Of a DNA stretch of 64,000 bases, positions 6,500-63,250 are shown in pieces; position 1 is the first letter of the stretch; each line of letters starts with the position of its first letter. A program made the position numbers and the translations under genes. Below the pieces are notes generated by a model. That model was not told the origin of the DNA. It worked only from the letters and a program-made list of their open reading frames with translations, and searched no databases. This stretch comes from Vicinamibacterales bacterium (GTDB lineage Bacteria; Acidobacteriota; Vicinamibacteria; Vicinamibacterales; CAVVIG01). Location of the stretch: NCBI GenBank assembly GCA_036004865.1, contig DASYQZ010000097.1:4606-68605 (forward strand), written 5' to 3'.

Positions 6500-6501
6500 G
6501 A

Positions 6502-6657
6502 GATTGCAGATTGCAAATTGCAGAATGCAGATTGATTGCAGATTGCTGATTGGATTGTGCGGCTGTGCCGGACAGTCCGCAATTCGAAAATGCAATCTGC
6601 AAATCCCAATCTGCAATCAATCTGCAATCTGCAATTTGAAATCTGCAATGTACAATT
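6502..6657. repeat. palindromic tandem-heptamer array: (GATTGCA)n, a spacer, then (TGCAATC)n
   Basis: Left arm 6502-6557, right arm 6591-6657. The outer roughly 46 nt of the arms are reverse complements with 3 mismatches. The central spacer is itself a small hairpin. Confidence 0.9.
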
Positions 6658-6664
6658 CACGCTT

Positions 6665-7195
6665 ATGTCTATTCTGAAAGTCGCGCGCATGGGGCATCCG
6701 GTGCTGCGCGCGAAAGCGCGGGCGCTCGACAAGGGCGAGATCGGGAGCGCCGCGATTCAGAGGCTCATCGACGACATGATCGAGACGATGATCGAGTATC
6801 ACGGCGTCGGCCTCGCCGCGCCGCAGGTGCACGAGGCGGTGCGTCTCTTCGTCGCCGCGCTCGACGCGCCCCCCGAGGAAGGCGGCAAGGAGCCCGAACC
6901 GGTCGTGATCATCAATCCTGAGATTGTGCCCGTCGGCAGCGACACCGTCGAGGACTGGGAGGGGTGCCTGAGCATCCCGGAGATCCGCGGCCGCGTCCCG
7001 CGTGCGCGCGAGATCCGCGTGCGCGCCTTCGACCGGAAAGGCGATCGCGTCGAGCTGCGCGCGCACGATTTTCCGGCGCGCGTCATTCAGCACGAAACCG
7101 ATCATCTCGACGGCGTGCTGTTCCTCGATCGGATGCGATCGTTCGAGACGCTGGCCTTCCTCGACGAGTATTCGCGGTACTGGACTAAAGACTGA
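6665..7195 (+). CDS. def: peptide deformylase
   Basis: Motifs GVGLAAPQV, EGCLSIP and QHETDHLDG. Start trimmed to ATG 6665 (MSILKVARMGHPVL). Confidence 0.92.
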   Translation: MSILKVARMGHPVLRAKARALDKGEIGSAAIQRLIDDMIETMIEYHGVGLAAPQVHEAVRLFVAALDAPPEEGGKEPEPVVIINPEIVPVGSDTVEDWEGCLSIPEIRGRVPRAREIRVRAFDRKGDRVELRAHDFPARVIQHETDHLDGVLFLDRMRSFETLAFLDEYSRYWTKD

Positions 7196-8828
7196 GCCGC
7201 TTTTTCTCGAGCTGACGTTCGGACTGAAGCCGTTCGAGCTCGACTTCGGAGTGATCCGCGAACTGCATCGCCGCGGCGATGGCGCGGTGGCCGGCGTCGT
7301 CTGCGATGGCGCGGTGCATCAACTGGCAGATGCGCCGGTACGAGGGGTGCCCCTGGGGCCCGGTGCGCAGCTCGATGAGGTGCATCGCTTCGCGCGCGTT
7401 CATGTCCATGTAGAACCGCACGCGGTAGGCCATGACGACGGCGTACGGCGCGACGTCGCGCAGTTCGTGCGCGCGGAGCTGTTCGTAGAGCTCCGCGGAT
7501 CGATCCGTCACGCGCCGCCAATCGGCCAGCGCGCCGGCTTCCTCGATCGCCGCCGGCTCGGTGTAGCCGTGGCGCGTGCTGAGCGGCTGCCAGTCGAGCG
7601 TCAGCAGGCGATGGCGCTGCAGATCGCGGAAGGCGCCGTAGTCGGCGAGCACGTCGAAGCGATAGCTGGTGCGCTCGAACGCGCGGCCCGGCTTGTGGCG
7701 GCGGTTCCCGCGGCGCCCGACGTACGCCCGCAGCAGAGCGACGCGATCGTCGGCCGAGAGGCGGCGCGCCGCTTCCAACAACTGATCGTCCGGCAACGCC
7801 GACACCGGGTAGAGCGCGGCGGCCACGACCTTGAGCTCGCCGTCGGGATCGAAACCGGTCAGTGTGACCTCGTCGCGCGGGTCAGGCGCGAGGTCCTCGA
7901 CGAACGGATGCGCCACGGCGGCGAAATTGCGACGCGTCTCGGCGAGGTAGTCAATCCACCGGCCGCCGCGGTCCGGCTGATCGATCCGGGCGAGGAACGC
8001 AGGAATCACCTGACGGAGCTCGGTCAGGATCTGTTGGGCGCAGTCGCGCGCTTCCAGCAGCGGATGCGCGAACATCCGCAGCAGCAGCGCCTCGAACGCC
8101 TGACCGGTGCCGAAGAGGCCGACGTTCGATTGCGTCGCCGCCGGCAGCAGTCCGCGCAGCGTGTCGAGCGCTTTGGCGCGAATCACCGATTTGTAGACGG
8201 CGTCCGAATCAGCGGGCGACTTCGGATACTTCGCGCGGAAGTGCGATTCCATCGCCGGGATCCAGCGCGCATAGGTGTCGAACGCCTCGTCGAGCGTGCG
8301 GACGAACGCCTCGCGAAGGGGCGATCGAATGAGCTCGGCGGGGACGTGATATTTCCAGCGGCCGTCAGGCCGGTCGGTGTACGGCACGTAGCGCGTGGAC
8401 TGCTCGAGATACGCCATCAGGCGGCCCCATTCGAGCACTTTCGTCAGCACGTTCGAGACGCCTTCGCACGCGACGTGCGCGCCGCCGAGCTGCGCGACCG
8501 AGTCGTCTCCGTATTCGCTCAGGACGCGCGCGTAGAGTTTGTCGGCGCGCGCGGTGCCGACCGTGCTGGTGTGAGGCGAGGGGCCCGCGTTCGTCAACGC
8601 GGCTCCGTGCGCGAGATCTCCGACGAATTCGTCGAGGAAGAGGCGGCGGACCGATTTCGCGGATCGCGAGTAGCGCGCGAACAGCGCGCCCTTCACCGTC
8701 TCCGGCAAATTGGTCAGCGCGAAGACCGGGCGGTCCGTGTTGGTGAAGTACGGCGCGAGCGCGCGTGTCTCGTCCGGCGTGAACGTTTCGGCGGCCACAG
8801 TGGCCGCGTATTGTACCGCGGTCCACAC
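7185..8828 (-). CDS. double-length ThyX-like (FAD-dependent thymidylate synthase family) protein
   Basis: 547 aa. Contains N-terminal ALFARYSRS and C-terminal FRDLQRHRLLT segments that resemble ThyX motifs. The assignment is by motif recall only. Confidence 0.55.
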   Translation of the reverse strand: MWTAVQYAATVAAETFTPDETRALAPYFTNTDRPVFALTNLPETVKGALFARYSRSAKSVRRLFLDEFVGDLAHGAALTNAGPSPHTSTVGTARADKLYARVLSEYGDDSVAQLGGAHVACEGVSNVLTKVLEWGRLMAYLEQSTRYVPYTDRPDGRWKYHVPAELIRSPLREAFVRTLDEAFDTYARWIPAMESHFRAKYPKSPADSDAVYKSVIRAKALDTLRGLLPAATQSNVGLFGTGQAFEALLLRMFAHPLLEARDCAQQILTELRQVIPAFLARIDQPDRGGRWIDYLAETRRNFAAVAHPFVEDLAPDPRDEVTLTGFDPDGELKVVAAALYPVSALPDDQLLEAARRLSADDRVALLRAYVGRRGNRRHKPGRAFERTSYRFDVLADYGAFRDLQRHRLLTLDWQPLSTRHGYTEPAAIEEAGALADWRRVTDRSAELYEQLRAHELRDVAPYAVVMAYRVRFYMDMNAREAMHLIELRTGPQGHPSYRRICQLMHRAIADDAGHRAIAAAMQFADHSEVELERLQSERQLEKKRLSL

Positions 8829-8836
8829 GACGAAGA

Positions 8837-9556
8837 TTACATGTCAGAGTGAAGTCTGAGTTCACTCCGACCTCGCTCCGACTTCATTCCGACTCGTGTC
8901 GGAGTGAACTCTGACTTGAGTACGACTACGCCTAGCCGCTCGTGCCGCGACTCGTCCTCAACCGGGTTCGGCTTCAGTGTCGTCCAGCAGTTGCGAACGC
9001 TGTCCAGGTCCGCATCCGGGAGGGGATCAGCGCAAATCGCACGATGCGCCGCGCGGCGCTCTTCGTCGGTTGCGCCGAGTCCCAGATAAAGCTCGTGCGG
9101 GACGAGCCACTCGATCACCGCGCCAAGTCCATGCGCGCGGTAACTTGACCAATAATGCGCGTCCGGCGTCGCAACCATGCCCGCTCGCACGGGGTTCTGT
9201 TCGACGTACCTCAAACAAATGAGCCACTGCCGCTCATCCAGGAGGTGTTTCGCGCGATATCGACCCTCCCAGATGGTGCCCGTCCGACCGTACTTGCGAT
9301 TGAAATAACGGGTGTATCGCTCACCCAGCTGCTTCATCGCGCCGGCCATGGCCGTCTCGCTGTTGGGCGTCGCGATCAGATGGTAGTGCGTCGTCATCAC
9401 GACGAACGCGTGGACGGACGCGCCGTGGCATTCAGCTGCGGCTGCGAGGATCCTCAAGAAGACGTCACAATCTGCGTCTTGCGTGAAGATACCCATCCGG
9501 TTGTTCCCGCGGTTGTAGACGTGTGCGCTCACCTTCGGAAGATAGATTCGTCGCAT
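8837..9556 (-). CDS. REP-associated tyrosine transposase (RAYT; IS200/Y1 HUH family)
   Basis: HUH motif in VVMTTHYHLIATP. Catalytic Tyr region GTIWEGRYRAKHLLDE, plus YVEQNPVRAGM. The last roughly 25 codons are read out of the flanking inverted repeat, so the true C-terminus is uncertain. Confidence 0.8.
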   Translation of the reverse strand: MRRIYLPKVSAHVYNRGNNRMGIFTQDADCDVFLRILAAAAECHGASVHAFVVMTTHYHLIATPNSETAMAGAMKQLGERYTRYFNRKYGRTGTIWEGRYRAKHLLDERQWLICLRYVEQNPVRAGMVATPDAHYWSSYRAHGLGAVIEWLVPHELYLGLGATDEERRAAHRAICADPLPDADLDSVRNCWTTLKPNPVEDESRHERLGVVVLKSEFTPTRVGMKSERGRSELRLHSDM

Positions 9557-9767
9557 GTGAACCCCCGGCGATCAGTCTCAGCAATATCTGGTCTCAGCGA
9601 GATGCCAACGAAACTCGCGTGCTCGGTCGAACACGAGGCAGTTTCTGCCAACGCGACTTAACCGATCCGACGTGCCCGTAAGTCGTACTGAAGTCAGAGT
9701 TGAGTCAGAGTGAACTCCGACTCGAGTCGGACTTGAGTCGGAGTGATGTCGGAGTGAAGTCGGACTC
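8845..9767 (-). mobile_element. RAYT gene bracketed by roughly 90-bp imperfect terminal inverted repeats built from REP-like hairpins
   Basis: The reverse complement of 8845-8930 aligns with 9677-9767 (cgta(a)gtcgtact[c/g]aagtcagagtt..cactccgac..gagtcgg..). The arms contain palindromes such as CCGACTCGAGTCGG and begin with CGTAG / CGTAAG. Confidence 0.75.
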
Positions 9768-9780
9768 GTTACAATTGGGC

Positions 9781-9987
9781 ATGGTCTACATCTTCGGCAA
9801 GGACACGTGACCGTATACGCAAGCCGCCCGTGACGACTACCAGCGGCGGCACGTCGCGTTCGAGTACATCAACGTGAAAAAGAATCCCCCCGAATTGCAG
9901 CGGATGCTGGAGTTCAGCAAGGGACGCCGCGCGGTGCCCGTCATCGTCGACGAGGGGACGGTGACGATCGGGTTCGGCGGCACCTGA
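9781..9987 (+). CDS. small glutaredoxin-like protein with an in-frame TGA at the active-site position (candidate selenoprotein, or a pseudogene)
   Basis: ATG 9781. Translation is MVYIFGKDT-TGA(9808-9810)-PYTQAARDDYQRRHVAFEYINVKKNPPELQRMLEFSKGRRAVPVIVDEGTVTIGFGGT, ending at stop 9985-9987. The layout is a thioredoxin fold with cis-Pro VPV. The ORF is absent from the ORF track because of the TGA. Confidence 0.45.
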
Positions 9988-10028
9988 GGCGTCTAGCGCG
10001 GGGCTCCCATCCAGCGGAGACTCGCGTC

Positions 10029-10050
10029 CGGCCACGGTCTGTGGCCGTTT
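10029..10050 (+). terminator. weak hairpin terminator after the glutaredoxin-like ORF
   Basis: CGGCCAC (10029-10035), loop GGTCT, GTGGCCG (10041-10047), followed by TTT. Confidence 0.35.
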
Positions 10051-10069
10051 CGCTCGATATTCCAGCGAA

Positions 10070-10099
10070 TTTGACTGCTTTGTGAAAGTGTTCACACAA
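10070..10099 (+). promoter_or_regulatory. putative sigma70-type promoter overlapped by a CRP/FNR-type palindrome upstream of the ABC operon
   Basis: TTGACT at 10070-10075 and CACAAT at 10094-10099, with an 18-nt spacer. TGTGA-N6-TCACA lies at 10080-10095. The ATG at 10107 is only 7 nt after the -10 box, which suggests a leaderless or very short leader. Confidence 0.4.
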
Positions 10100-10106
10100 T
10101 AGCGCC

Positions 10107-10838
10107 ATGGCTCTCGTCGCCACGGCGACCATGATCGAGCTCGATCGCGTCACCCGGCAGTTCGCCGGCAAGCGTGATGTGGTCGCGCTCGACGCCGTCA
10201 GCGTCGCCATCCCGCGCGGCGAACTGGTCTCGATCATCGGTCCGTCCGGCTCCGGCAAGTCGACGCTCCTCAATCTCGTCGGCGGACTCGATCGCCCCAC
10301 CTCCGGCGAGGTCCGCGTCGACGGCGAGACGCTCTCCGGCCTCGCAGACGATGCGCTGACGCGCGTCCGGCGCGACAAGATTGGTTTCATCTTTCAGTTC
10401 TTCAATCTGCTGCCGACGCTGTCGTGCCTCGAGAACGTCGGCCTCCCGCTGCACCTGCGCGGCTGGCCGCGCAGGAAAGTCGACGAGCGCGCGCGTGAGC
10501 TGCTGCACCTCGTACAACTGGGCCATCGCCTCACGCACCTCCCAGAGGAGCTCTCCGGCGGCGAGCGCCAGCGCGTCGCCATCGCCCGCGCGCTCTCGAT
10601 CTATCCGCCGATCCTGCTGGCCGACGAACCGACCGGCAATCTCGACACCCGCACCGGCGACGAGATCCTGACGCTCATCCGCGATCTCCACACCCGTCTC
10701 AAATCCACCGTCGTCATTGTCACCCACGATCTGGACGTCGCTCAGAGCTGCGAGCGCACGATCGCGCTTCGCGACGGCCGCGTCATCGAAGATATCCGGC
10801 GAGGACATCAGACGGCCACGCCAGCGGAGCGGCCGTGA
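10107..10838 (+). CDS. ABC transporter ATP-binding protein (MacB/LolD type)
   Basis: Walker A GPSGSGKST, signature LSGGERQRVAIARAL, Walker B ILLADEPTGNLD, and the FIFQFFNLLP motif. Confidence 0.92.
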   Translation: MALVATATMIELDRVTRQFAGKRDVVALDAVSVAIPRGELVSIIGPSGSGKSTLLNLVGGLDRPTSGEVRVDGETLSGLADDALTRVRRDKIGFIFQFFNLLPTLSCLENVGLPLHLRGWPRRKVDERARELLHLVQLGHRLTHLPEELSGGERQRVAIARALSIYPPILLADEPTGNLDTRTGDEILTLIRDLHTRLKSTVVIVTHDLDVAQSCERTIALRDGRVIEDIRRGHQTATPAERP

Positions 10839-13396
10839 TTCTGCTGCGGCTCATCAGCTGGCCGTACTTCCGCAAGCACGTCCTGCGGACGCTGTTGACG
10901 ACGGCCGGCATCGTGCTGGGCGTCGCGGTGTTCGTCGGCATGCACACCGCGAATCAGAGCGTGCTGTTCGCCTTCTCGCGGACCGTCGATCGCATCGCCG
11001 GCAAGACCGAGCTCGAGGTGACGGCGGGCGAAACCGGATTCGACGAGAGCGTCCTCGAGAAAGTGCAAAGTGCATCGACGGTGCGAGTCGCCGTGCCGGT
11101 CATCGAAGCCATCGTCGATACGAACGCGCTCGATCGCCGGGGGCAGGGCAATGTCCTCGTCCTCGGTATCGACATGACCGGCGATCGCAGCCTCCGCGAG
11201 TACGAGCTCGAGAGCGGCGATGAAGCGATCGTCGACGATCCACTGGTGTTTCTCGCGCAGCCCGACTCGATCATCCTGGCGAAGGAGCTCGCCGACCGCA
11301 ACCATCTCGCGCCGGGGCAACGGCTGCCGCTCGGCACCGTCGAAGGGGTGAAGCCGTTCACGATCCGCGGCATCATGAAATCGACCGGACTCGCGAGCGC
11401 GTACGGCGGCAACCTCGCGGTGATGGACATTTACGCCGCGCAGAACATGTTCGGCCGCGGCCGGACGTTCGACCGGATCGATCTCGCGGTCAAGCCCGGC
11501 GTCACGCTCGCCGACAGCGAGCGGGAGCTGCGTGCGCTGCTGGGTCCGGGATTCCAGATCGATCCGCCGGCGGGCCGCGGCCGGCAGTTCGAGGCGATGC
11601 TGGCGGCGTACTCGATGATGGTGAACATCTCGAGCGCGTTCGCGCTGTTCATCGGCATGTTCATCATCTACAACGCGTTCGCGATCGCGGTGACCCAGCG
11701 GCGATCCGAAATCGGCATCCTGCGCGCGCTCGGCGCGACGCGGCGGCAGATTCGCTGGCTGTTTCTCGGCGAGAGCGCGGTGACGGGCCTGGTCGGCTCG
11801 CTGGGCGGACTTCTCTTCGGCGTCGTGATTGCCAGCGGCATCGCCGCATCGATCGGCACGTTGATCACCGACGTCTACGGCGTCGCCCAGCGCACCGACG
11901 AGATTGCGCGCAGCCCCACGCTGCTCGCGCTGGCGCTCGGCATCGGCGTCGTGACCAGCATCGTCGCCGCATGGATTCCGGCGCGCAACGCGGCGCGCGT
12001 CGACCCGGTGCAGGCGCTGCAGAAGGGCAAGTATCAGGTGCTGTCGGCGGGCGAGAGCCGCCTGCGCGCGGCGTGTGCGGCCATCCTCGGCGTTGCCTCG
12101 GTCGTGTGTCTCGCCGCCGGCCGATCGCGGCCCGTCTTCTACGCCGGATATTGTTTCGCGATCATCGCGTCGCTGCTGCTGAGCCCGCTGCTGTCGCTGG
12201 CGCTGTCGAAGGCGATTCGGCCGATCCTGAAATGGATCCGCCCGGTCGAAGGCGCGCTCGCCGCGGACAGCCTGATCCAGGCGCCGCGTCGGACGTCGGC
12301 GAGCGTCGCGGCGCTGATGCTGTCGCTCGCGCTCGTCGTCGCGTTCGGCGGGATGGCGCGCGCGAGCTACGTGGCGATCGTCGACTGGATGAACGTCGCG
12401 CTCAATCCCGATCTGTTCATCATCCCGTCACAGAATCTCACCATCCGCACGATTCGCTTCCCGAAGGAGATGGGGCCGCAGATCGCCGCCGTGCCGGGCG
12501 TCGCGCGCGTGCAGATGGTCCGCGACGCCCGCATCGTGTTCCGCGGGACGCCGATCATGGTCGTCGCCGTCGAAGTGAACAGCCTGGCGCAGACAGTGCG
12601 GCTCGATCCCGTGGCCGGCAATCGGGCGGACATGAACCGGCGCACGGCCGCCGGCGACGCGTTGATGGTGTCGGACAACCTCGCGCAGCTCCAGGATCTG
12701 CGGCTCGGCGACATGCTCGAGATCGCAGCGCCGAACGGCGTCATCCGGCTGCCGATCGCCGGCGTCATCGTCGACTACTCCGATCAGCTGGGCACGATCT
12801 TCATGGATCGATCGCTGTTCATCCGCTACTGGAGCGACGACACTGTGAACGTGTTCCGCGTCTATCTGCAGCCGGGGGCGCCTGCGCCGGAGGTGCGGCA
12901 GCGCATTCTCGAACGGTTTGCCGGCCAGCGTCAGCTGTTCGTGCTGACCAACGGCGAGATCAAGCGCTACATCCTCAAGATCACCGATCAGTGGTTCGGT
13001 CTCACGTCAGTGCAGATCGCGGTGGCAGTGCTCGTGGCGATTCTCGGAATCGTGAACACGCTGACTGTGTCGATCACGGATCGCCGCCGCGAGCTCGGCG
13101 TGCTGCAGGCCGTCGGCGGACTGCACGGGCAGATTCGGCGGACGATCTGGATCGAAGCGCTGAGCATCGGCGTGATCGGGCTCGTGCTTGGCTACGTGTT
13201 CGGCGCCATCAACCTCTATTACGTGCTGCAGGTCGTGCGTCACGACATCGCGGGCCTGCGGCTCGATTATCAGTTCCCGGTCGGGACGGTGCTCGCGCTC
13301 GTGCCGATCATTCTCGGCGCCGCGTTCGTCGCCGCGATCTGGCCGGCCGAATCAGCCGTGCACGGCTCTCTCGTAGAGGCGCTTGAGTACGAATGA
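10835..13396 (+). CDS. ABC transporter permease with duplicated FtsX domains (MacB-like)
   Basis: 853 aa. Two FtsX-type four-helix blocks carry RRSEIGILRALGATRRQI and RRRELGVLQAVGGLHGQI. GTGA overlap with the ATPase stop. Confidence 0.85.
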   Translation: MILLRLISWPYFRKHVLRTLLTTAGIVLGVAVFVGMHTANQSVLFAFSRTVDRIAGKTELEVTAGETGFDESVLEKVQSASTVRVAVPVIEAIVDTNALDRRGQGNVLVLGIDMTGDRSLREYELESGDEAIVDDPLVFLAQPDSIILAKELADRNHLAPGQRLPLGTVEGVKPFTIRGIMKSTGLASAYGGNLAVMDIYAAQNMFGRGRTFDRIDLAVKPGVTLADSERELRALLGPGFQIDPPAGRGRQFEAMLAAYSMMVNISSAFALFIGMFIIYNAFAIAVTQRRSEIGILRALGATRRQIRWLFLGESAVTGLVGSLGGLLFGVVIASGIAASIGTLITDVYGVAQRTDEIARSPTLLALALGIGVVTSIVAAWIPARNAARVDPVQALQKGKYQVLSAGESRLRAACAAILGVASVVCLAAGRSRPVFYAGYCFAIIASLLLSPLLSLALSKAIRPILKWIRPVEGALAADSLIQAPRRTSASVAALMLSLALVVAFGGMARASYVAIVDWMNVALNPDLFIIPSQNLTIRTIRFPKEMGPQIAAVPGVARVQMVRDARIVFRGTPIMVVAVEVNSLAQTVRLDPVAGNRADMNRRTAAGDALMVSDNLAQLQDLRLGDMLEIAAPNGVIRLPIAGVIVDYSDQLGTIFMDRSLFIRYWSDDTVNVFRVYLQPGAPAPEVRQRILERFAGQRQLFVLTNGEIKRYILKITDQWFGLTSVQIAVAVLVAILGIVNTLTVSITDRRRELGVLQAVGGLHGQIRRTIWIEALSIGVIGLVLGYVFGAINLYYVLQVVRHDIAGLRLDYQFPVGTVLALVPIILGAAFVAAIWPAESAVHGSLVEALEYE

Positions 13397-40751: not shown

Positions 40752-42941
40752 ATGAGACAAGGCACAGTCGTTCTGACGTTGGCCGCCGCGACGCTCGGCG
40801 CTGTCCTGGTGTCCGCGCAAAACAACGCCGCTCCGCCGTCACGTCTGCGCGGATTCTCGGTGGCGTCCAGCGCGTCCGAGCTCGAGCGCGAACGGATGTT
40901 CCAGGCCATGCCCGACGCGAAGCTCGCCGAAGCGGATTTCGACGTGATGACGGCCGAGCCGCATCACACCGGCTCGCCGTACGAGATCAAGCTGGCCGAT
41001 TACGTCGCCGATCGGTTCAAGACGTTCGGCTTCGACGTCTCGCGCGACGAGTACAGCGTGCTGCTGCCGTGGCCCGGCGAGCGCCGCCTCGACATCGTCG
41101 GGCCCGACCCGGTGAAGCTCGAGGTGGAGGAAGAAAAGATCCGCGGCGATCAATGGGCCGACATGCCCGGCATCCTGCCGGCCTACAACGCATACTCGCC
41201 GTCGGGCGACGTCACCGGCGAGATCGTCTACGTCAACTTCGGCATCCCCTCGGATTACGACACGCTGCAGAAGCTCGGCATCGACGTGAAGGGCAAGATC
41301 GTGCTCGCGCGCTACGGCGGAAGCTGGCGCGGGATCAAACCGAAAGTCGCGGCGGAGCACGGCGCCGTCGCCTGCCTCATTTATTCAGATCCGCACGAGG
41401 ACGGCTACTTCCAGGGCGAGGTGTATCCCGACGGTCCGTTTCGCGGCTGGGGGATGATTCAGCGCGGCAGCGTGATGGACATGCCGCGCTATCCCGGCGA
41501 TCCGTCGACACCCGATCGTCCATCGAAGCCGGGCGTGGCGCGGATTCCGATGGATCAGATCAAAACCTTCTCGCCTATTCCGGTGCAGCCGCTGTCGTAT
41601 CGCGACGGTGTCGAGCTGCTGAAGCGTCTCAAGGGTCCCGTTGCGCCGGAAGCGTGGCGCGGCGCGCTGCCGATCACCTACCACGTGGGTCCGGGTCCTG
41701 CGAGCGTCCACGTCAAACTGCAGATGGACTACGCGCAGCGGCGCGTGATCAACGTCGTCGGACGGATCGCGGGTCGCGAGTCTCCCGACGAGTGGGTCAT
41801 CGTCGGATCGCATCGCGATGCGTGGACGTTCGGCGCGTCGGATTCAGTCAGCGGTCACGTGTCGATGATGAGCGTGGCGCGTGCGTTCAGCGACATGATG
41901 AAGGCCGGCTGGAGGCCGCGCCGCACGTTGATCTTCGTGAGCTGGGACGGCGAGGAGCAGGGGCTGCTCGGATCGACGGAATGGGTGGAGGAGTTTGCGA
42001 CCGAGCTGCGGGCGAAGACCGCCGTGTACGTGAATCGCGATGCCGGTGCGGGCGGCTTGAACTTCAACAGCAGCGCGGTCCATTCGCTGACGCCGTTCGT
42101 CCACGAGCTGGCCCAGTCGATTCGGCCGGCGGGAGAGTCGAAGACCCTGTATGAAGGGTGGCTTGCCCGGGTGCGCGAACAGGCGCCGAAGCAGGAGGGT
42201 CAACCACCGCCGGCCGAGACCATCAAAACGCCGCCGGTGGGCGCGCTCGGATCGGGATCGGACTACACGGCATTTCTTGATCATGTCGGCATCACGTCGC
42301 TCGACATGGGCTTGAACGGTACCGGGGGCGACGGTACGTATCACTCCACGTACGACAATCCGTCGTGGTTCAAGAAATACATCGATCCTCAGTTCAAGTA
42401 CAGCGTTCTCGCCGCGCAGGTGACCGGCGTCGCGCTGCTGCGGCTCGTCGACGCCGAGGTGCTGCCGTTCGACGACGAGTCATATGGCAAGCAGATCCTC
42501 GAGTACGTGAACGAGATCGAGCAGCAGGCGACCAAGGCGTCGACGCCCGAAGCAAAAAATGACGCGAAGAAGATCGATTTCCGTGGATTGAAAGCCGCCG
42601 CCGAGAGCTTCGCGAAGGCGGGCGCCGATCTCCGCCGCCGCGCCGATGAAGTCGTACTACAGTCCGACTCCAGTCAGGCTGCAGCACGACTCATTGCAAT
42701 TCGTGACATCAATCACCGGCTGATGATGGCGGAGCGCGATCTGATCGAGCCACAGGGGCTGCCGGACCGGCCGTGGTTCCGGCACGTGATTTACGCGCCG
42801 GGGCTGTACACGGGCTACGGCGTGAAGACCATTCCCGGCGTGCGCGAGGCGGTCGATGCCGGCAACTATGCGCGCGCGGCCGATCAGGCGGCGATCGTCA
42901 TCCGCGCGCTGCAGCGCGCCGCGAAGACGCTATGGCCATAG
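40752..42941 (+). CDS. M28-family peptidase (glutamate carboxypeptidase II / transferrin-receptor-like)
   Basis: Signal MRQGTVVLTLAAATLGAVLVSAQ. PA domain, then ..GSHRDAW.FGA.D..SG.. and ..SWDGEEQGLLGSTEW.E.. C-terminal dimerisation-like helices. Confidence 0.85.
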   Translation: MRQGTVVLTLAAATLGAVLVSAQNNAAPPSRLRGFSVASSASELERERMFQAMPDAKLAEADFDVMTAEPHHTGSPYEIKLADYVADRFKTFGFDVSRDEYSVLLPWPGERRLDIVGPDPVKLEVEEEKIRGDQWADMPGILPAYNAYSPSGDVTGEIVYVNFGIPSDYDTLQKLGIDVKGKIVLARYGGSWRGIKPKVAAEHGAVACLIYSDPHEDGYFQGEVYPDGPFRGWGMIQRGSVMDMPRYPGDPSTPDRPSKPGVARIPMDQIKTFSPIPVQPLSYRDGVELLKRLKGPVAPEAWRGALPITYHVGPGPASVHVKLQMDYAQRRVINVVGRIAGRESPDEWVIVGSHRDAWTFGASDSVSGHVSMMSVARAFSDMMKAGWRPRRTLIFVSWDGEEQGLLGSTEWVEEFATELRAKTAVYVNRDAGAGGLNFNSSAVHSLTPFVHELAQSIRPAGESKTLYEGWLARVREQAPKQEGQPPPAETIKTPPVGALGSGSDYTAFLDHVGITSLDMGLNGTGGDGTYHSTYDNPSWFKKYIDPQFKYSVLAAQVTGVALLRLVDAEVLPFDDESYGKQILEYVNEIEQQATKASTPEAKNDAKKIDFRGLKAAAESFAKAGADLRRRADEVVLQSDSSQAAARLIAIRDINHRLMMAERDLIEPQGLPDRPWFRHVIYAPGLYTGYGVKTIPGVREAVDAGNYARAADQAAIVIRALQRAAKTLWP

Positions 42942-52853: not shown

Positions 52854-53912
52854 TCAGCCTTCGCCGTTCGCGGACTCCATCAATCGTTGCACCACGCCAT
52901 CCCAGGTGATCGACCGGGCGCGATCGTACCCCGCGTCGCCGAGGCTTCGAGCGCGCGCGCGGTCGGCCGCGAGTCGCGAGATGCCGGCTCCAAACGATTC
53001 GGGCGTCGGCTCGGCAACCAGGCCGTTCACGCCGTCTTCGACGAACTCCAGCGGACCGCCGGCGTCGCCGGTGGTGACGACCGGTTTGCGCGCGAGAAAC
53101 GCCTCGAGCGTCACATAGCCGTAGTCCTCGTCGAACGGCGGAAAGACGACCCCGAGCGCGCCGGCGTACAACCGTACCAGGTGCTCGGCGTCGACGCGGC
53201 CGGCGAACGTGACGCGATCGGCGACGCCTGCGGTCACCGCCGTTTCGGCGAGCTGTTCACGCAGCGGACCCTCGCCGACGACGAGGAGCCGGACGGCGCG
53301 ATCGGCATGCGCGAGCGCGCGAATGATCAGATCGACGCGTTTGTTCGCTTCGAGCCGGCCGACCGACAACACGTAGTCGCCGTACGGACCGGCGCGCAGC
53401 GCGCCGGCAAGCGGCGGCGGGTGATAGAGCGGTTCGGCCGTGATGCCGTTGTAGCGTTCGAGCCGCGCCGCGATGGTGCGCGCGATGGTGAAGAGCCGCG
53501 CCGACTCCGTCAGCATCTCCCGATCGAGCGCGATGAGCGTATCGCGGAGCCGCACGTCCGCTTCCTCGTGCGTGAACTCGCTGTACGGCGTGCCGCACAA
53601 ATCGTAAATCGGGCGGTGCTGGTGGCAGAGCCAGGTCACTTTGTTTGGATGGCGCACGAAGTACGTCGGGAATTTCGTCGCGATGACGGTGTCGATGCGC
53701 GTGCCGTTGGTCTCGGAGAGATCGACGAGCCGCCAGGCCGCCGCCTGCGCGAGCAGCTCCGCTTTCGGATACCACTTGAACGGAATCGACACGCGCTCGG
53801 CGCGGTACCCGTGGCGCCGGAGCTCGTCGACGAGGCTGCGCACGAGCAGTTCGGCGCCGCCGTGCACGAACGGCACCTGAGCCTCGCACACGAGAACGCT
53901 ACGACTCGGCAT
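52854..53912 (-). CDS. family 4 (GT-B) glycosyltransferase
   Basis: ..VGRLE.NKR.DL...A......L.VVGEGP.. and ..EDYGYV.LEAF...KPVV....GGP.EFV.DG.NG. Confidence 0.85.
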   Translation of the reverse strand: MPSRSVLVCEAQVPFVHGGAELLVRSLVDELRRHGYRAERVSIPFKWYPKAELLAQAAAWRLVDLSETNGTRIDTVIATKFPTYFVRHPNKVTWLCHQHRPIYDLCGTPYSEFTHEEADVRLRDTLIALDREMLTESARLFTIARTIAARLERYNGITAEPLYHPPPLAGALRAGPYGDYVLSVGRLEANKRVDLIIRALAHADRAVRLLVVGEGPLREQLAETAVTAGVADRVTFAGRVDAEHLVRLYAGALGVVFPPFDEDYGYVTLEAFLARKPVVTTGDAGGPLEFVEDGVNGLVAEPTPESFGAGISRLAADRARARSLGDAGYDRARSITWDGVVQRLMESANGEG

Positions 53913-54056
53913 CTGGTAATCGGGTAATCGGGTAATCGGGTAATCGGATTGTGCGATTGCACCACATCGTCGTTGTCGAGGCCATCACGGATTCATCGCG
54001 GCCCAATCCAGCAATCAATTACCCGATTACCAGATTACCCAATTACCAGATTCACC
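53913..54056. repeat. palindromic tandem-octamer array: (GGGTAATC)4, a roughly 70-nt spacer, then (GATTACCM)4
   Basis: The left arm (53913-53949) and right arm (54017-54056) are reverse complements at 31 of 34 aligned positions. The inner edge of the left arm is GGATTGTGCG, identical to 6552-6561. Confidence 0.9.
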
Positions 54057-63221: not shown

Positions 63222-63222
63222 A

Positions 63223-63250
63223 GGGATTGGGGATTAGGGATTTGGGATTC
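63223..63250 (+). repeat. tandem heptamer tract (GGGATTN)4 at the mraY-murD junction
   Basis: gggattg gggatta gggattt gggattc. It overlaps the putative TTG start of murD. Confidence 0.85.

Follow-up and report, generated by a model that had tools for sequence, protein, structure and literature searches.

Among the selenoproteins catalogued in bacteria, the nearest to the gene described here form the NCBIfam family NF041114, "UXX-star selenoprotein family 1", whose name comes from a C-terminal Sec-X-X-stop. In Table 1 of a 2026 review (PMC13188914) the family is listed with the motif UxxT and two Sec residues, under the name 'Distant Grx-like protein 1', while the main text of the 2008 GOS paper, to which the review refers for the family, leaves it unnamed. 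The review also considers a role as metal or metalloid ligand possible for UXX-star Sec residues and, as far as its citation conveys, Haft & Tolstoy 2025 (mSystems) deal with other UXX-star families and with a suggested role for the Sec. A further point of comparison is the selenoprotein glutaredoxin of Clostridium (Alkaliphilus) oremlandii, known here through the citation of Kim et al. 2011 in the same review, where it is given as a UxxC protein. As regards the group of bacteria concerned, selenoproteins have been reported in Acidobacteria at phylum level (PMC1794560).

The gene under study lies in a window, that is, the whole stretch of 64,000 nucleotides analysed, from a Vicinamibacterales bacterium (Table 1). 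Its translated product reads MVYIFGKDT-U-PYTQAARDDYQRRHVAFEYINVKKNPPELQRMLEFSKGRRAVPVIVDEGTVTIGFGGT-U-GV*, and we consider it likely, from comparison of sequences, that the gene is intact and functional and encodes a UXX-star family 1 selenoprotein of glutaredoxin fold and 71 residues, in the two-Sec form. With both U entered as C, the protein matched the NF041114 profile over its entire length (positions 1-70 of 70), scoring 121.8 bits with the C-terminal tail and 112.6 bits without the three C-terminal residues, against a curated cutoff of 72 bits. The Cys-substituted protein also matched the Pfam Glutaredoxin model PF00462 (E 4.5e-10, 40 bits, cutoff 22.9). Both scores, being above their cutoffs, bear out the glutaredoxin-like nature that a first-pass annotation had ascribed to this mini-ORF, and the order of strand and active site as well as the cis-Pro VPV that it described agree with glutaredoxin domains (PF00462, PDB 5w1j). 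The U-P-Y-T motif, at codons 10-13, is of the UxxT type given for NF041114. What that annotation missed was that the gene belongs to a catalogued family; since NF041114, with UxxT and two Sec, is already present in the review, the two-Sec gene architecture found in the window is already catalogued (NF041114, PMC13188914) and is not new. Membership of the classical glutaredoxin, NrdH or YruB families was also considered and rejected, as the protein carries U-P-Y-T instead of CxxC and the corresponding family models all score far under their cutoffs (GlrX_YruB, 43.5 against 88.55; GRX_bact, 40.6 against 90; NrdH, 29 against 85.75).

When the window was re-read, the start codon (ATG 9781-9783), the in-frame TGA and the translation quoted in the first-pass annotation proved exact. 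The 68-codon frame that it proposed is indeed open as far as the TGA at 9985, and this is not the end of the gene, since GGC GTC TAG comes next; the TGA that had been taken as the stop is the second Sec codon of the NF041114 family. The ORF had also been said to escape standard gene calling, and in fact JGI had called no more than a 37-aa fragment at the site.

Table 1. Positions in the window of the selenoprotein gene, its RNA elements and the adjacent genes
Feature	Position	Strand	Basis or remark
Complete gene, predicted UXX-star family 1 glutaredoxin-like selenoprotein	9781..9996	+	71 codons + TAG; translation, NF041114, PF00462
First predicted Sec codon TGA, nucleophilic position of U-P-Y-T	9808..9810	+	TGA/Cys column in orthologues; CPYC alignment
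SECIS-like hairpin in the coding region	9823..9850	+	GCCGCC (9823-9828)/GGCGGC (9845-9850); loop 9829-9844, start CGUGA
Second predicted Sec codon TGA, C-terminal U-G-V-stop	9985..9987	+	TGA in 81/81 orthologues
True stop TAG	9994..9996	+	Sequence read
Extra hairpin between stop codon and 3' SECIS, loop CAUCCAGC, stem of 7 bp + 4 bp	9996..10027	+	Fold
Putative family-type SECIS hairpin for the second TGA, CGGCCAC/GUGGCCG, loop GGUCU	10029..10047	+	Fold; stem and loop likeness
-10-like hexamer TACAAT, 5 nt before ATG	9770..9775	+	Sequence; similar hexamers in orthologues
Divergent 547-residue Thy1-domain (ThyX-like) gene	7185-8828	-	Score under thyX cutoff
RAYT (REP-associated tyrosine transposase) gene	8837-9556	-	Between ThyX-like gene and selenoprotein gene
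LolD/MacB-type ABC transporter genes, downstream	10107-13396		Own promoter TTGACT-18-CACAAT

The first TGA occupies the position of a redox-active cysteine. In the alignment with the glutaredoxin domain of thioredoxin glutathione reductase (PDB 5w1j), residue 10 falls opposite the first Cys of CPYC; a match to E. coli Grx3 (3grx, 1fov) covers the same region. A protein search returned 1075 relatives, most of them given a length of 68-69 residues, as gene callers take the second TGA for the stop; W is written at both TGA positions in eight JGI entries, and the NCBI-named NF041114-family entries among the search matches end at the second TGA. For the comparison of codons, 80 loci (one genome per species), nearly all labelled as Acidobacteriota, Vicinamibacterales or subdivision 6 MAGs, were taken together with the window, giving 81 genes. 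The active-site codon is TGA in 39 of these, the window included, and TGT or TGC in the other 42, so that, as the first-pass annotation had claimed, the TGA stands in place of the first Cys of the glutaredoxin motif, and the Cys of the homologues falls in the TGA column. The two states are intermixed, with the opposite codon found in the nearest neighbour for 14 of the 80 loci, and both occur across different local gene arrangements, which indicates that Cys and Sec have been exchanged repeatedly.

The reading frame is under constraint on either side of this codon. Among the TGA forms, divergence per site over the six codons upstream of the TGA is 0.009 at position 1, 0.024 at position 2 and 0.33 at position 3, and the 43 codons downstream of it diverge as they do in the Cys forms. 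An in-frame UGA opposite Cys, with coding constraint on both sides, is the mark of a SelB-dependent selenoprotein, and it is what the comparison reveals at this site. The TGA at codon 10 almost certainly encodes selenocysteine, judging from the orthologues. Among the other in-frame-TGA coding frames of the window, no convincing second selenoprotein was detected.

A hairpin follows this codon within the coding region, in the 14 codons that come next. As had been pointed out at the outset, a GCCGCC/GGCGGC stem is present 12 nt past the TGA, closing a 16-nt loop, CGUGACGACUACCAGC, which includes GU. The single-sequence fold is no better than that of shuffles (z -0.6 to -1.4), and on one G+C-rich sequence such a value means that the hairpin by itself proves nothing. 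The comparison across species, by its codon pattern, indicates that it is not a product of chance. All six stem pairs can form in 30 of the 39 TGA forms, with five of six in 5 more, but in just 1 of the 41 Cys forms. Where the TGA is present, the Ala-Ala-Arg codons at +5 to +7 are almost fixed (GCC in 37/39, GCC in 38/39 and CGT in 34/39), while the Cys forms use GCG, GCC or GCA and mainly CGC; likewise, the Arg-Arg codons at +12 and +13 are (C/A)GG and CGG (36/39) in the TGA forms and are freely chosen in the Cys forms. Third-position entropy at these codons is 0.17-0.55 bit in the former group and 1.24-1.65 bit in the latter. The neighbouring codons are equally variable in both groups, so the contrast does not simply reflect shared ancestry. 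The loop, which opens 21 nt past the U of the UGA, starts with CGUGA in 34 of 39 TGA forms and with CGGGA in the other 5. The UGA at 9808 is thus followed, at a fixed short distance, by a G-containing loop of the kind found in SECIS elements, and the first-pass placing of a SECIS here agrees with synonymous sites that are frozen in the TGA forms only. The sole Cys form with a full stem (locus L039) has the TGA form L071 as its nearest neighbour, at 90% identity, and looks like a recent reversion from Sec to Cys which has kept a relic SECIS.

The second TGA is invariant: a C-terminal TGA, two codons and then a stop are present in all 81 genes, the stop itself being TGA in 40, TAG in 34 and TAA in 7. 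In the window the codons beyond it give ...GFGGT-U-G-V-stop, a Sec-X-X-stop ending. The first codon past this TGA is GGN in 75 of 80 species (GGC 39, GGG 26, GGT 7, GGA 3), and the next is GTN in 77 of 80, with GTC, GTG, GTT and GTA all occurring; as these two codons vary only at third positions, they appear to be translated. Taken together, the third-position-dominated divergence around the first TGA and the synonymous variation past the second argue that both UGAs are translated through in frame. By this comparison, the UGA at 9985 is the family's invariant C-terminal Sec codon.

The corresponding RNA signal would be a hairpin in the 3' UTR. MAFFT alignments of these hairpins were out of structural register; the statistics were computed directly, with shuffles and the downstream region 90-150 nt as controls. 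A stem of at least 6 bp was found in 75/80 loci (32/77 in the control region), the distance between the U of the UGA and the loop start is 19-24 nt in 75/80 (17/77), a G lies within the first two loop positions in 77/77 (38/77), and GG or GU occurs in the loop in 77/77 (32/77). Measured from the same U, the stem begins at 12-16 nt in 73/80. Across the 63 distinct stems, each position shows CG, GC, UA and AU pairs, that is, compensatory changes, and the mean stem score is 19.05 compared with 13.2 for shuffles. Geometry and loop consensus, including loop spacing, agree with those of the SECIS that follows the first TGA. Single-sequence folding energies were not significant, and neither hairpin was matched in Rfam, where a gathering-threshold search of the whole window and an E-value search of 9700-10110 gave nothing relevant; a family match is not expected for hairpins of this sort.

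The window departs from the family in precisely this region. Its hairpin with the GGUCU loop resembles, in stem and GGUC loop, the GGUC-loop hairpins of other family members and that of the locus L085, but the stem begins 44 nt past the U of the second UGA instead of the usual 12-16 nt. The space between is taken up by the extra hairpin (32-33 nt), whose loop begins 23 nt past that U, within the family range, and, unlike the 77/77 family hairpins, has no G in its first two positions and no GG or GU. L085, a close relative whose protein is 88% identical and whose downstream promoter region is almost the same, has a canonical GGCCGCG-GUC-CGCGGCC hairpin at +13, so the extra hairpin looks like an insertion specific to the lineage of the window organism. 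Its 18-nt core has no other copy in the window or the loci, and the 53 metagenome matches to that core all lie in unrelated contexts; the hairpin corresponds to no recognisable repeat family.

In E. coli, the spacing between UGA and SECIS is critical. With the 3' SECIS displaced by the inserted hairpin, insertion of the second Sec becomes less certain in this organism, where, by analogy, it may proceed poorly or not at all. In the extreme case only the first UGA would be recoded and translation would stop at the UGA at 9985, giving a 68-residue protein with Sec10 and without the C-terminal U-G-V. The displaced GGUCU hairpin, the intervening loop CAUCCAGC devoid of the features of the family loops and the canonical arrangement kept in L085 all point in that direction. 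Nevertheless, the GGC GTC TAG after the second UGA is intact, and the C-terminal Sec is invariant in 81/81 genes, so that its loss would probably be selected against; furthermore, the inserted hairpin, being closed, could hold the through-space distance between UGA and SECIS near normal, and its loop, at 23 nt, might itself bind SelB. We therefore regard a product with a single Sec as unlikely, and the two-Sec protein remains the preferred reading.

Another explanation would dispense with Sec altogether, the UGAs being read through by a suppressor tRNA (such as one of the unusual 'allo-tRNAs' described in Acidobacteria) or by near-cognate read-through, with Cys, Ser or Trp inserted. It derives some support from the fact that the Sec machinery was not found in the window: ARAGORN gave no tRNA-Sec for the window (64 kb) or for 60 of the loci, tblastn of E. 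coli SelA, SelB and SelD against the window and the 80 loci gave no match, and Pfam scans of 20 window proteins gave no sel genes. In addition, acidobacterial 8/4 and 9/3 tRNAs may be nonsense suppressors (PMC5389517). Global suppression is, nevertheless, hard to square with TGA being the commonest true stop in the window, where it ends 20 of 37 long ORFs, and with the 40 orthologues in which TGA serves as Sec and then, 6 nt later, as stop; the same two facts led us to reject a reassignment of TGA. The hairpins with G-rich loops at fixed distance and the strict Cys/TGA alternation at the redox site are, for their part, the signature of SelB-dependent insertion, and NCBI curates NF041114 as a selenoprotein. 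Read-through with an ordinary amino acid is thus very improbable. Under Sec insertion, TGA can act in both senses six nucleotides apart because recoding is position-specific and SECIS-dependent: SelB would deliver only to a UGA at the right distance, which would allow half of the orthologues to use TGA as Sec and then as stop. We infer from these sequences that the organism is able to make and insert Sec, and the UGA-G-V-stop, invariant in the clade and apparently translated, argues indirectly that the bacteria of this clade decode it.

The first-pass annotation had itself offered the alternative that a nonsense mutation had inactivated a glutaredoxin-like gene, perhaps in connection with the adjacent RAYT element. 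The REP-associated tyrosine transposase gene lies 224 nt away, and standard gene callers see only the short fragment; but the same TGA is found in 38 other species, in which the protein is conserved on both sides and divergence is mostly at third positions, and the synonymous sites of the SECIS stem are constrained. Moreover, 9 other species have a RAYT gene at the corresponding syntenic place, with 43-56% identity only, which makes it an old resident and not a recent disruptive insertion. A pseudogene is accordingly barely credible. As for a sequencing or assembly error hiding a TGC or TGT, nothing specific speaks for it beyond the fact that a single-base change would give Cys, and its probability is practically negligible, given that a stretch of 421 nt with both TGAs in it recurs at 100% identity in two separate JGI metagenome assemblies (3300036863 and 3300036864), and that the codons of the SECIS follow the pattern of the TGA forms and not that of the Cys forms.

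With regard to expression, a TANNNT-type hexamer stands at the same place as TACAAT in most orthologous loci, just before the ATG, which suggests a leaderless mRNA; a consensus promoter scan called no -35 for the hexamer at 9770-9775. Judging from its position, TACAAT is probably the promoter of a transcript that is both leaderless and monocistronic. The neighbour most often retained is the ThyX-like gene, situated within ~1.5 kb in ~58 of the 80 loci and in four relative arrangements, and this pattern hints at a functional link between the two genes.

The mechanism that these data suggest would involve SelB bound to each hairpin and delivering Sec-tRNA to the UGA ~20 nt upstream of the loop, the second UGA being served by the small G-loop hairpin in the 3' UTR. 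The predicted protein lacks the second Cys of CxxC and ends five residues after the Gly-Gly turn that flanks the active site in glutaredoxins. By analogy, the C-terminal Sec would probably serve the CxxT/UxxT active site as its resolving residue, forming an intramolecular selenenylsulfide (Se-S) in the Cys forms and a diselenide (Se-Se) in the two-Sec forms, and the protein is probably a small redox carrier, although it may instead have the metal or metalloid ligand role mentioned in the review; it is from such analogies that we infer a Sec10-Sec69 bond and a redox function. A bolder proposal can be built on this basis, namely that Sec10 and Sec69 constitute a natural diselenide centre in a bacterial glutaredoxin fold, that the protein is a dedicated electron carrier for the ThyX-like flavoprotein and, separately, that the SECIS still works ~30 nt further out thanks to a self-contained hairpin; we hold it to be quite improbable and put it forward as speculation.

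As a whole, the central claim of the first-pass annotation, a glutaredoxin-like mini-ORF in which the redox Cys codon is a TGA read as Sec with a SECIS just downstream, is sustained by the HMM match, the alternation of Cys and TGA, the coding constraint and the frozen stem sites, and its interpretation of the gene appears to have been essentially right. No new biology is added, the family, the UxxT motif and the two Sec being already catalogued. What is underlined is the need for Sec-aware annotation in soil Acidobacteriota, where ordinary gene callers miss this gene. Moreover, the loci amount to a natural experiment on SECIS evolution, with Cys and Sec forms side by side, a relic SECIS, and TGA in both roles, Sec codon and stop, at a distance of six nucleotides. 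The residual interest lies in the displaced 3' SECIS, the Cys/Sec series with its relic SECIS and the linkage to the ThyX-like gene, and the hairpin insertion in the window organism raises a small question on SECIS spacing.

Compared with the systems described so far, the gene is closest to NF041114 itself, with which it shares a length of ~70 residues, a glutaredoxin-like fold, U/C-P-Y-T near the N-terminus, the GFGGT-U-X-X-stop ending and two Sec; there is no difference at the protein level, and the window RNA differs in the extra hairpin before the 3' SECIS. The glutaredoxin of C. oremlandii, as far as the description cited in PMC13188914 goes, is likewise bacterial, has Sec at the nucleophilic active-site position and carries its SECIS within the coding region, but it has a single Sec in UxxC and a fold of normal length, without a C-terminal UXX-stop. 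With the classical dithiol glutaredoxins and NrdH/YruB the protein has in common the PF00462 domain, C/U-P-Y after strand 1, the cis-Pro V-P-V and the Gly-Gly turn after the last strand; in contrast to classical glutaredoxins, it has Thr at position four of the motif and no C-terminal helix, and the resolving Cys is replaced by the C-terminal Sec. Among eukaryotes, the GCUG tail of thioredoxin reductase and the UxxU of SelL provide redox Sec residues near the C-terminus or in a diselenide. The likeness lies in a Sec few residues from the C-terminus, a flexible tail, a SECIS in the 3' UTR and a potential Se-S or Se-Se couple, while the folds are unrelated, the SECIS is of another type, and the two Sec of the window protein, with 59 residues from one to the other, would be brought together only by the fold. 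Finally, yeast monothiol Grx5 is said, in work reportedly by Tamarit et al. in 2003, to form a Cys60-Cys117 disulfide, which would set a precedent in that the active-site Cys of a Grx, having no CxxC partner, pairs with one just past the GG turn; it differs in using sulfur, in its full-length fold, in binding an Fe-S cluster, and in having GG-C where the window protein has GG-T-U.

In 40 of the 81 genes compared (the window gene and its orthologues at L001-L080, one genome per species), the last 12 nt of the coding sequence place a TGA as the true stop codon two codons past the TGA that encodes selenocysteine, which means that in these selenoprotein genes the same triplet is decoded in two ways inside 9 nt. 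Presumably, the Sec-TGA and the stop-TGA are told apart by their distance to the SECIS loop. In the window, a hairpin-forming insertion (Table) shifts the start of the 3' SECIS hairpin, counted from the second UGA, from about 13 nt to 44 nt. The insertion is missing from the close relative L085, no other copy of the inserted sequence was found in the window or in the loci, and its metagenome matches were unrelated.

At the active-site codon, one orthologue (L039:10028-10093) bears a Cys codon, TGT, while retaining the full GCCGCC...GGCGGC SECIS stem together with the CGTGA start of the loop. Its nearest neighbour, L071, is 90% identical and has the TGA form. In L039, Cys seems to have replaced Sec recently, the SECIS element persisting as a relic.

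The family, UXX-star selenoprotein family 1, is mishandled by public gene calls (protein matches P0001, P0003, P0005, P0022, P0053, P0075, P0084 and P0099; locus L081, 4181-4294). The JGI entries either read both TGA codons as W or consist of a 37-aa fragment only, the NCBI-named entries examined terminate at GFGGT, and the C-terminal U-X-X is included in none of the 120 matches listed. In addition, three gene-bearing loci are labelled not as Vicinamibacterales, but as Betaproteobacteria (L066), Candidatus Methylomirabilota (L072) and Solibacteraceae (L028) MAGs, labels which could reflect binning contamination or horizontal transfer.

Features of the selenoprotein gene neighbourhood, in window coordinates
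Feature	Position	Strand	Remark
ThyX-like gene	7185-8828	-	Thy1-domain, 547 aa; divergent, double-length, thyX HMM score below cutoff
RAYT gene	8837-9556	-	inverted arrays at 8861-8928 and 9680-9768
-10-like hexamer	9770-9775		upstream of the selenoprotein gene ATG
Hairpin-forming insertion, 33 nt	9996-10027		between the stop codon and the family-type 3' SECIS hairpin
Family-type 3' SECIS hairpin	10029-10047		
-10-like hexamer	10095-10100		upstream of the downstream ABC ATPase gene

In some 58 of the 80 species at L001-L080, the selenoprotein gene has a ThyX-like gene no more than about 1.5 kb away, with four arrangements distinguished (upstream divergent, 33; downstream co-directional, 25; others, 4); in at least 11 species, the ThyX-like gene is absent inside 10 kb. 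The syntenic slot of the window's REP-associated tyrosine transposase (RAYT) gene also holds a RAYT in L002, L014, L015, L023, L029, L034, L035, L046 and L063, with an identity of only 43-56%. Inverted arrays of the 11-nt unit AAGTCGGAGTG flank the RAYT gene in the window, about eight copies lying 5' and about three on the opposite side; the 17 window matches to this unit (0.6 expected) are confined to these arrays and to 42649-42681. Short tandem repeats of 7-11 nt occupy many intergenic regions of this genome (window 6501-6649, 53911-53947, 54018-54052 and 63222-63249). In many related species (L023, L031, L038, L041, L046, L053, L063 and L080), such repeats also lie immediately 5' of the promoter of the selenoprotein gene, the unit sequences being species-specific.

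Upstream of the selenoprotein gene, most species at L001-L080 carry a -10-like hexamer (TACAAT, TAGAAT, GACAAT or CACAAT) ending 5-6 nt 5' of the ATG, replaced in a minority by Shine-Dalgarno-like sequences; in the window, a -10-like hexamer likewise precedes the ABC ATPase gene. These hexamers suggest leaderless transcripts. The ABC transporter promoter contains, between its -35 and -10 elements, the palindrome TGTGAAAGTGTTCACA (window 10081-10096), of the CRP/FNR type TGTGA-N6-TCACA. Similar TGTGAAA / TTCACA motifs occur near the selenoprotein gene at other loci, on its 3' side in L013, L014, L019, L033-L035, L062, L068, L085 and L087, and on its 5' side in L025, L027, L030, L036 and L045.
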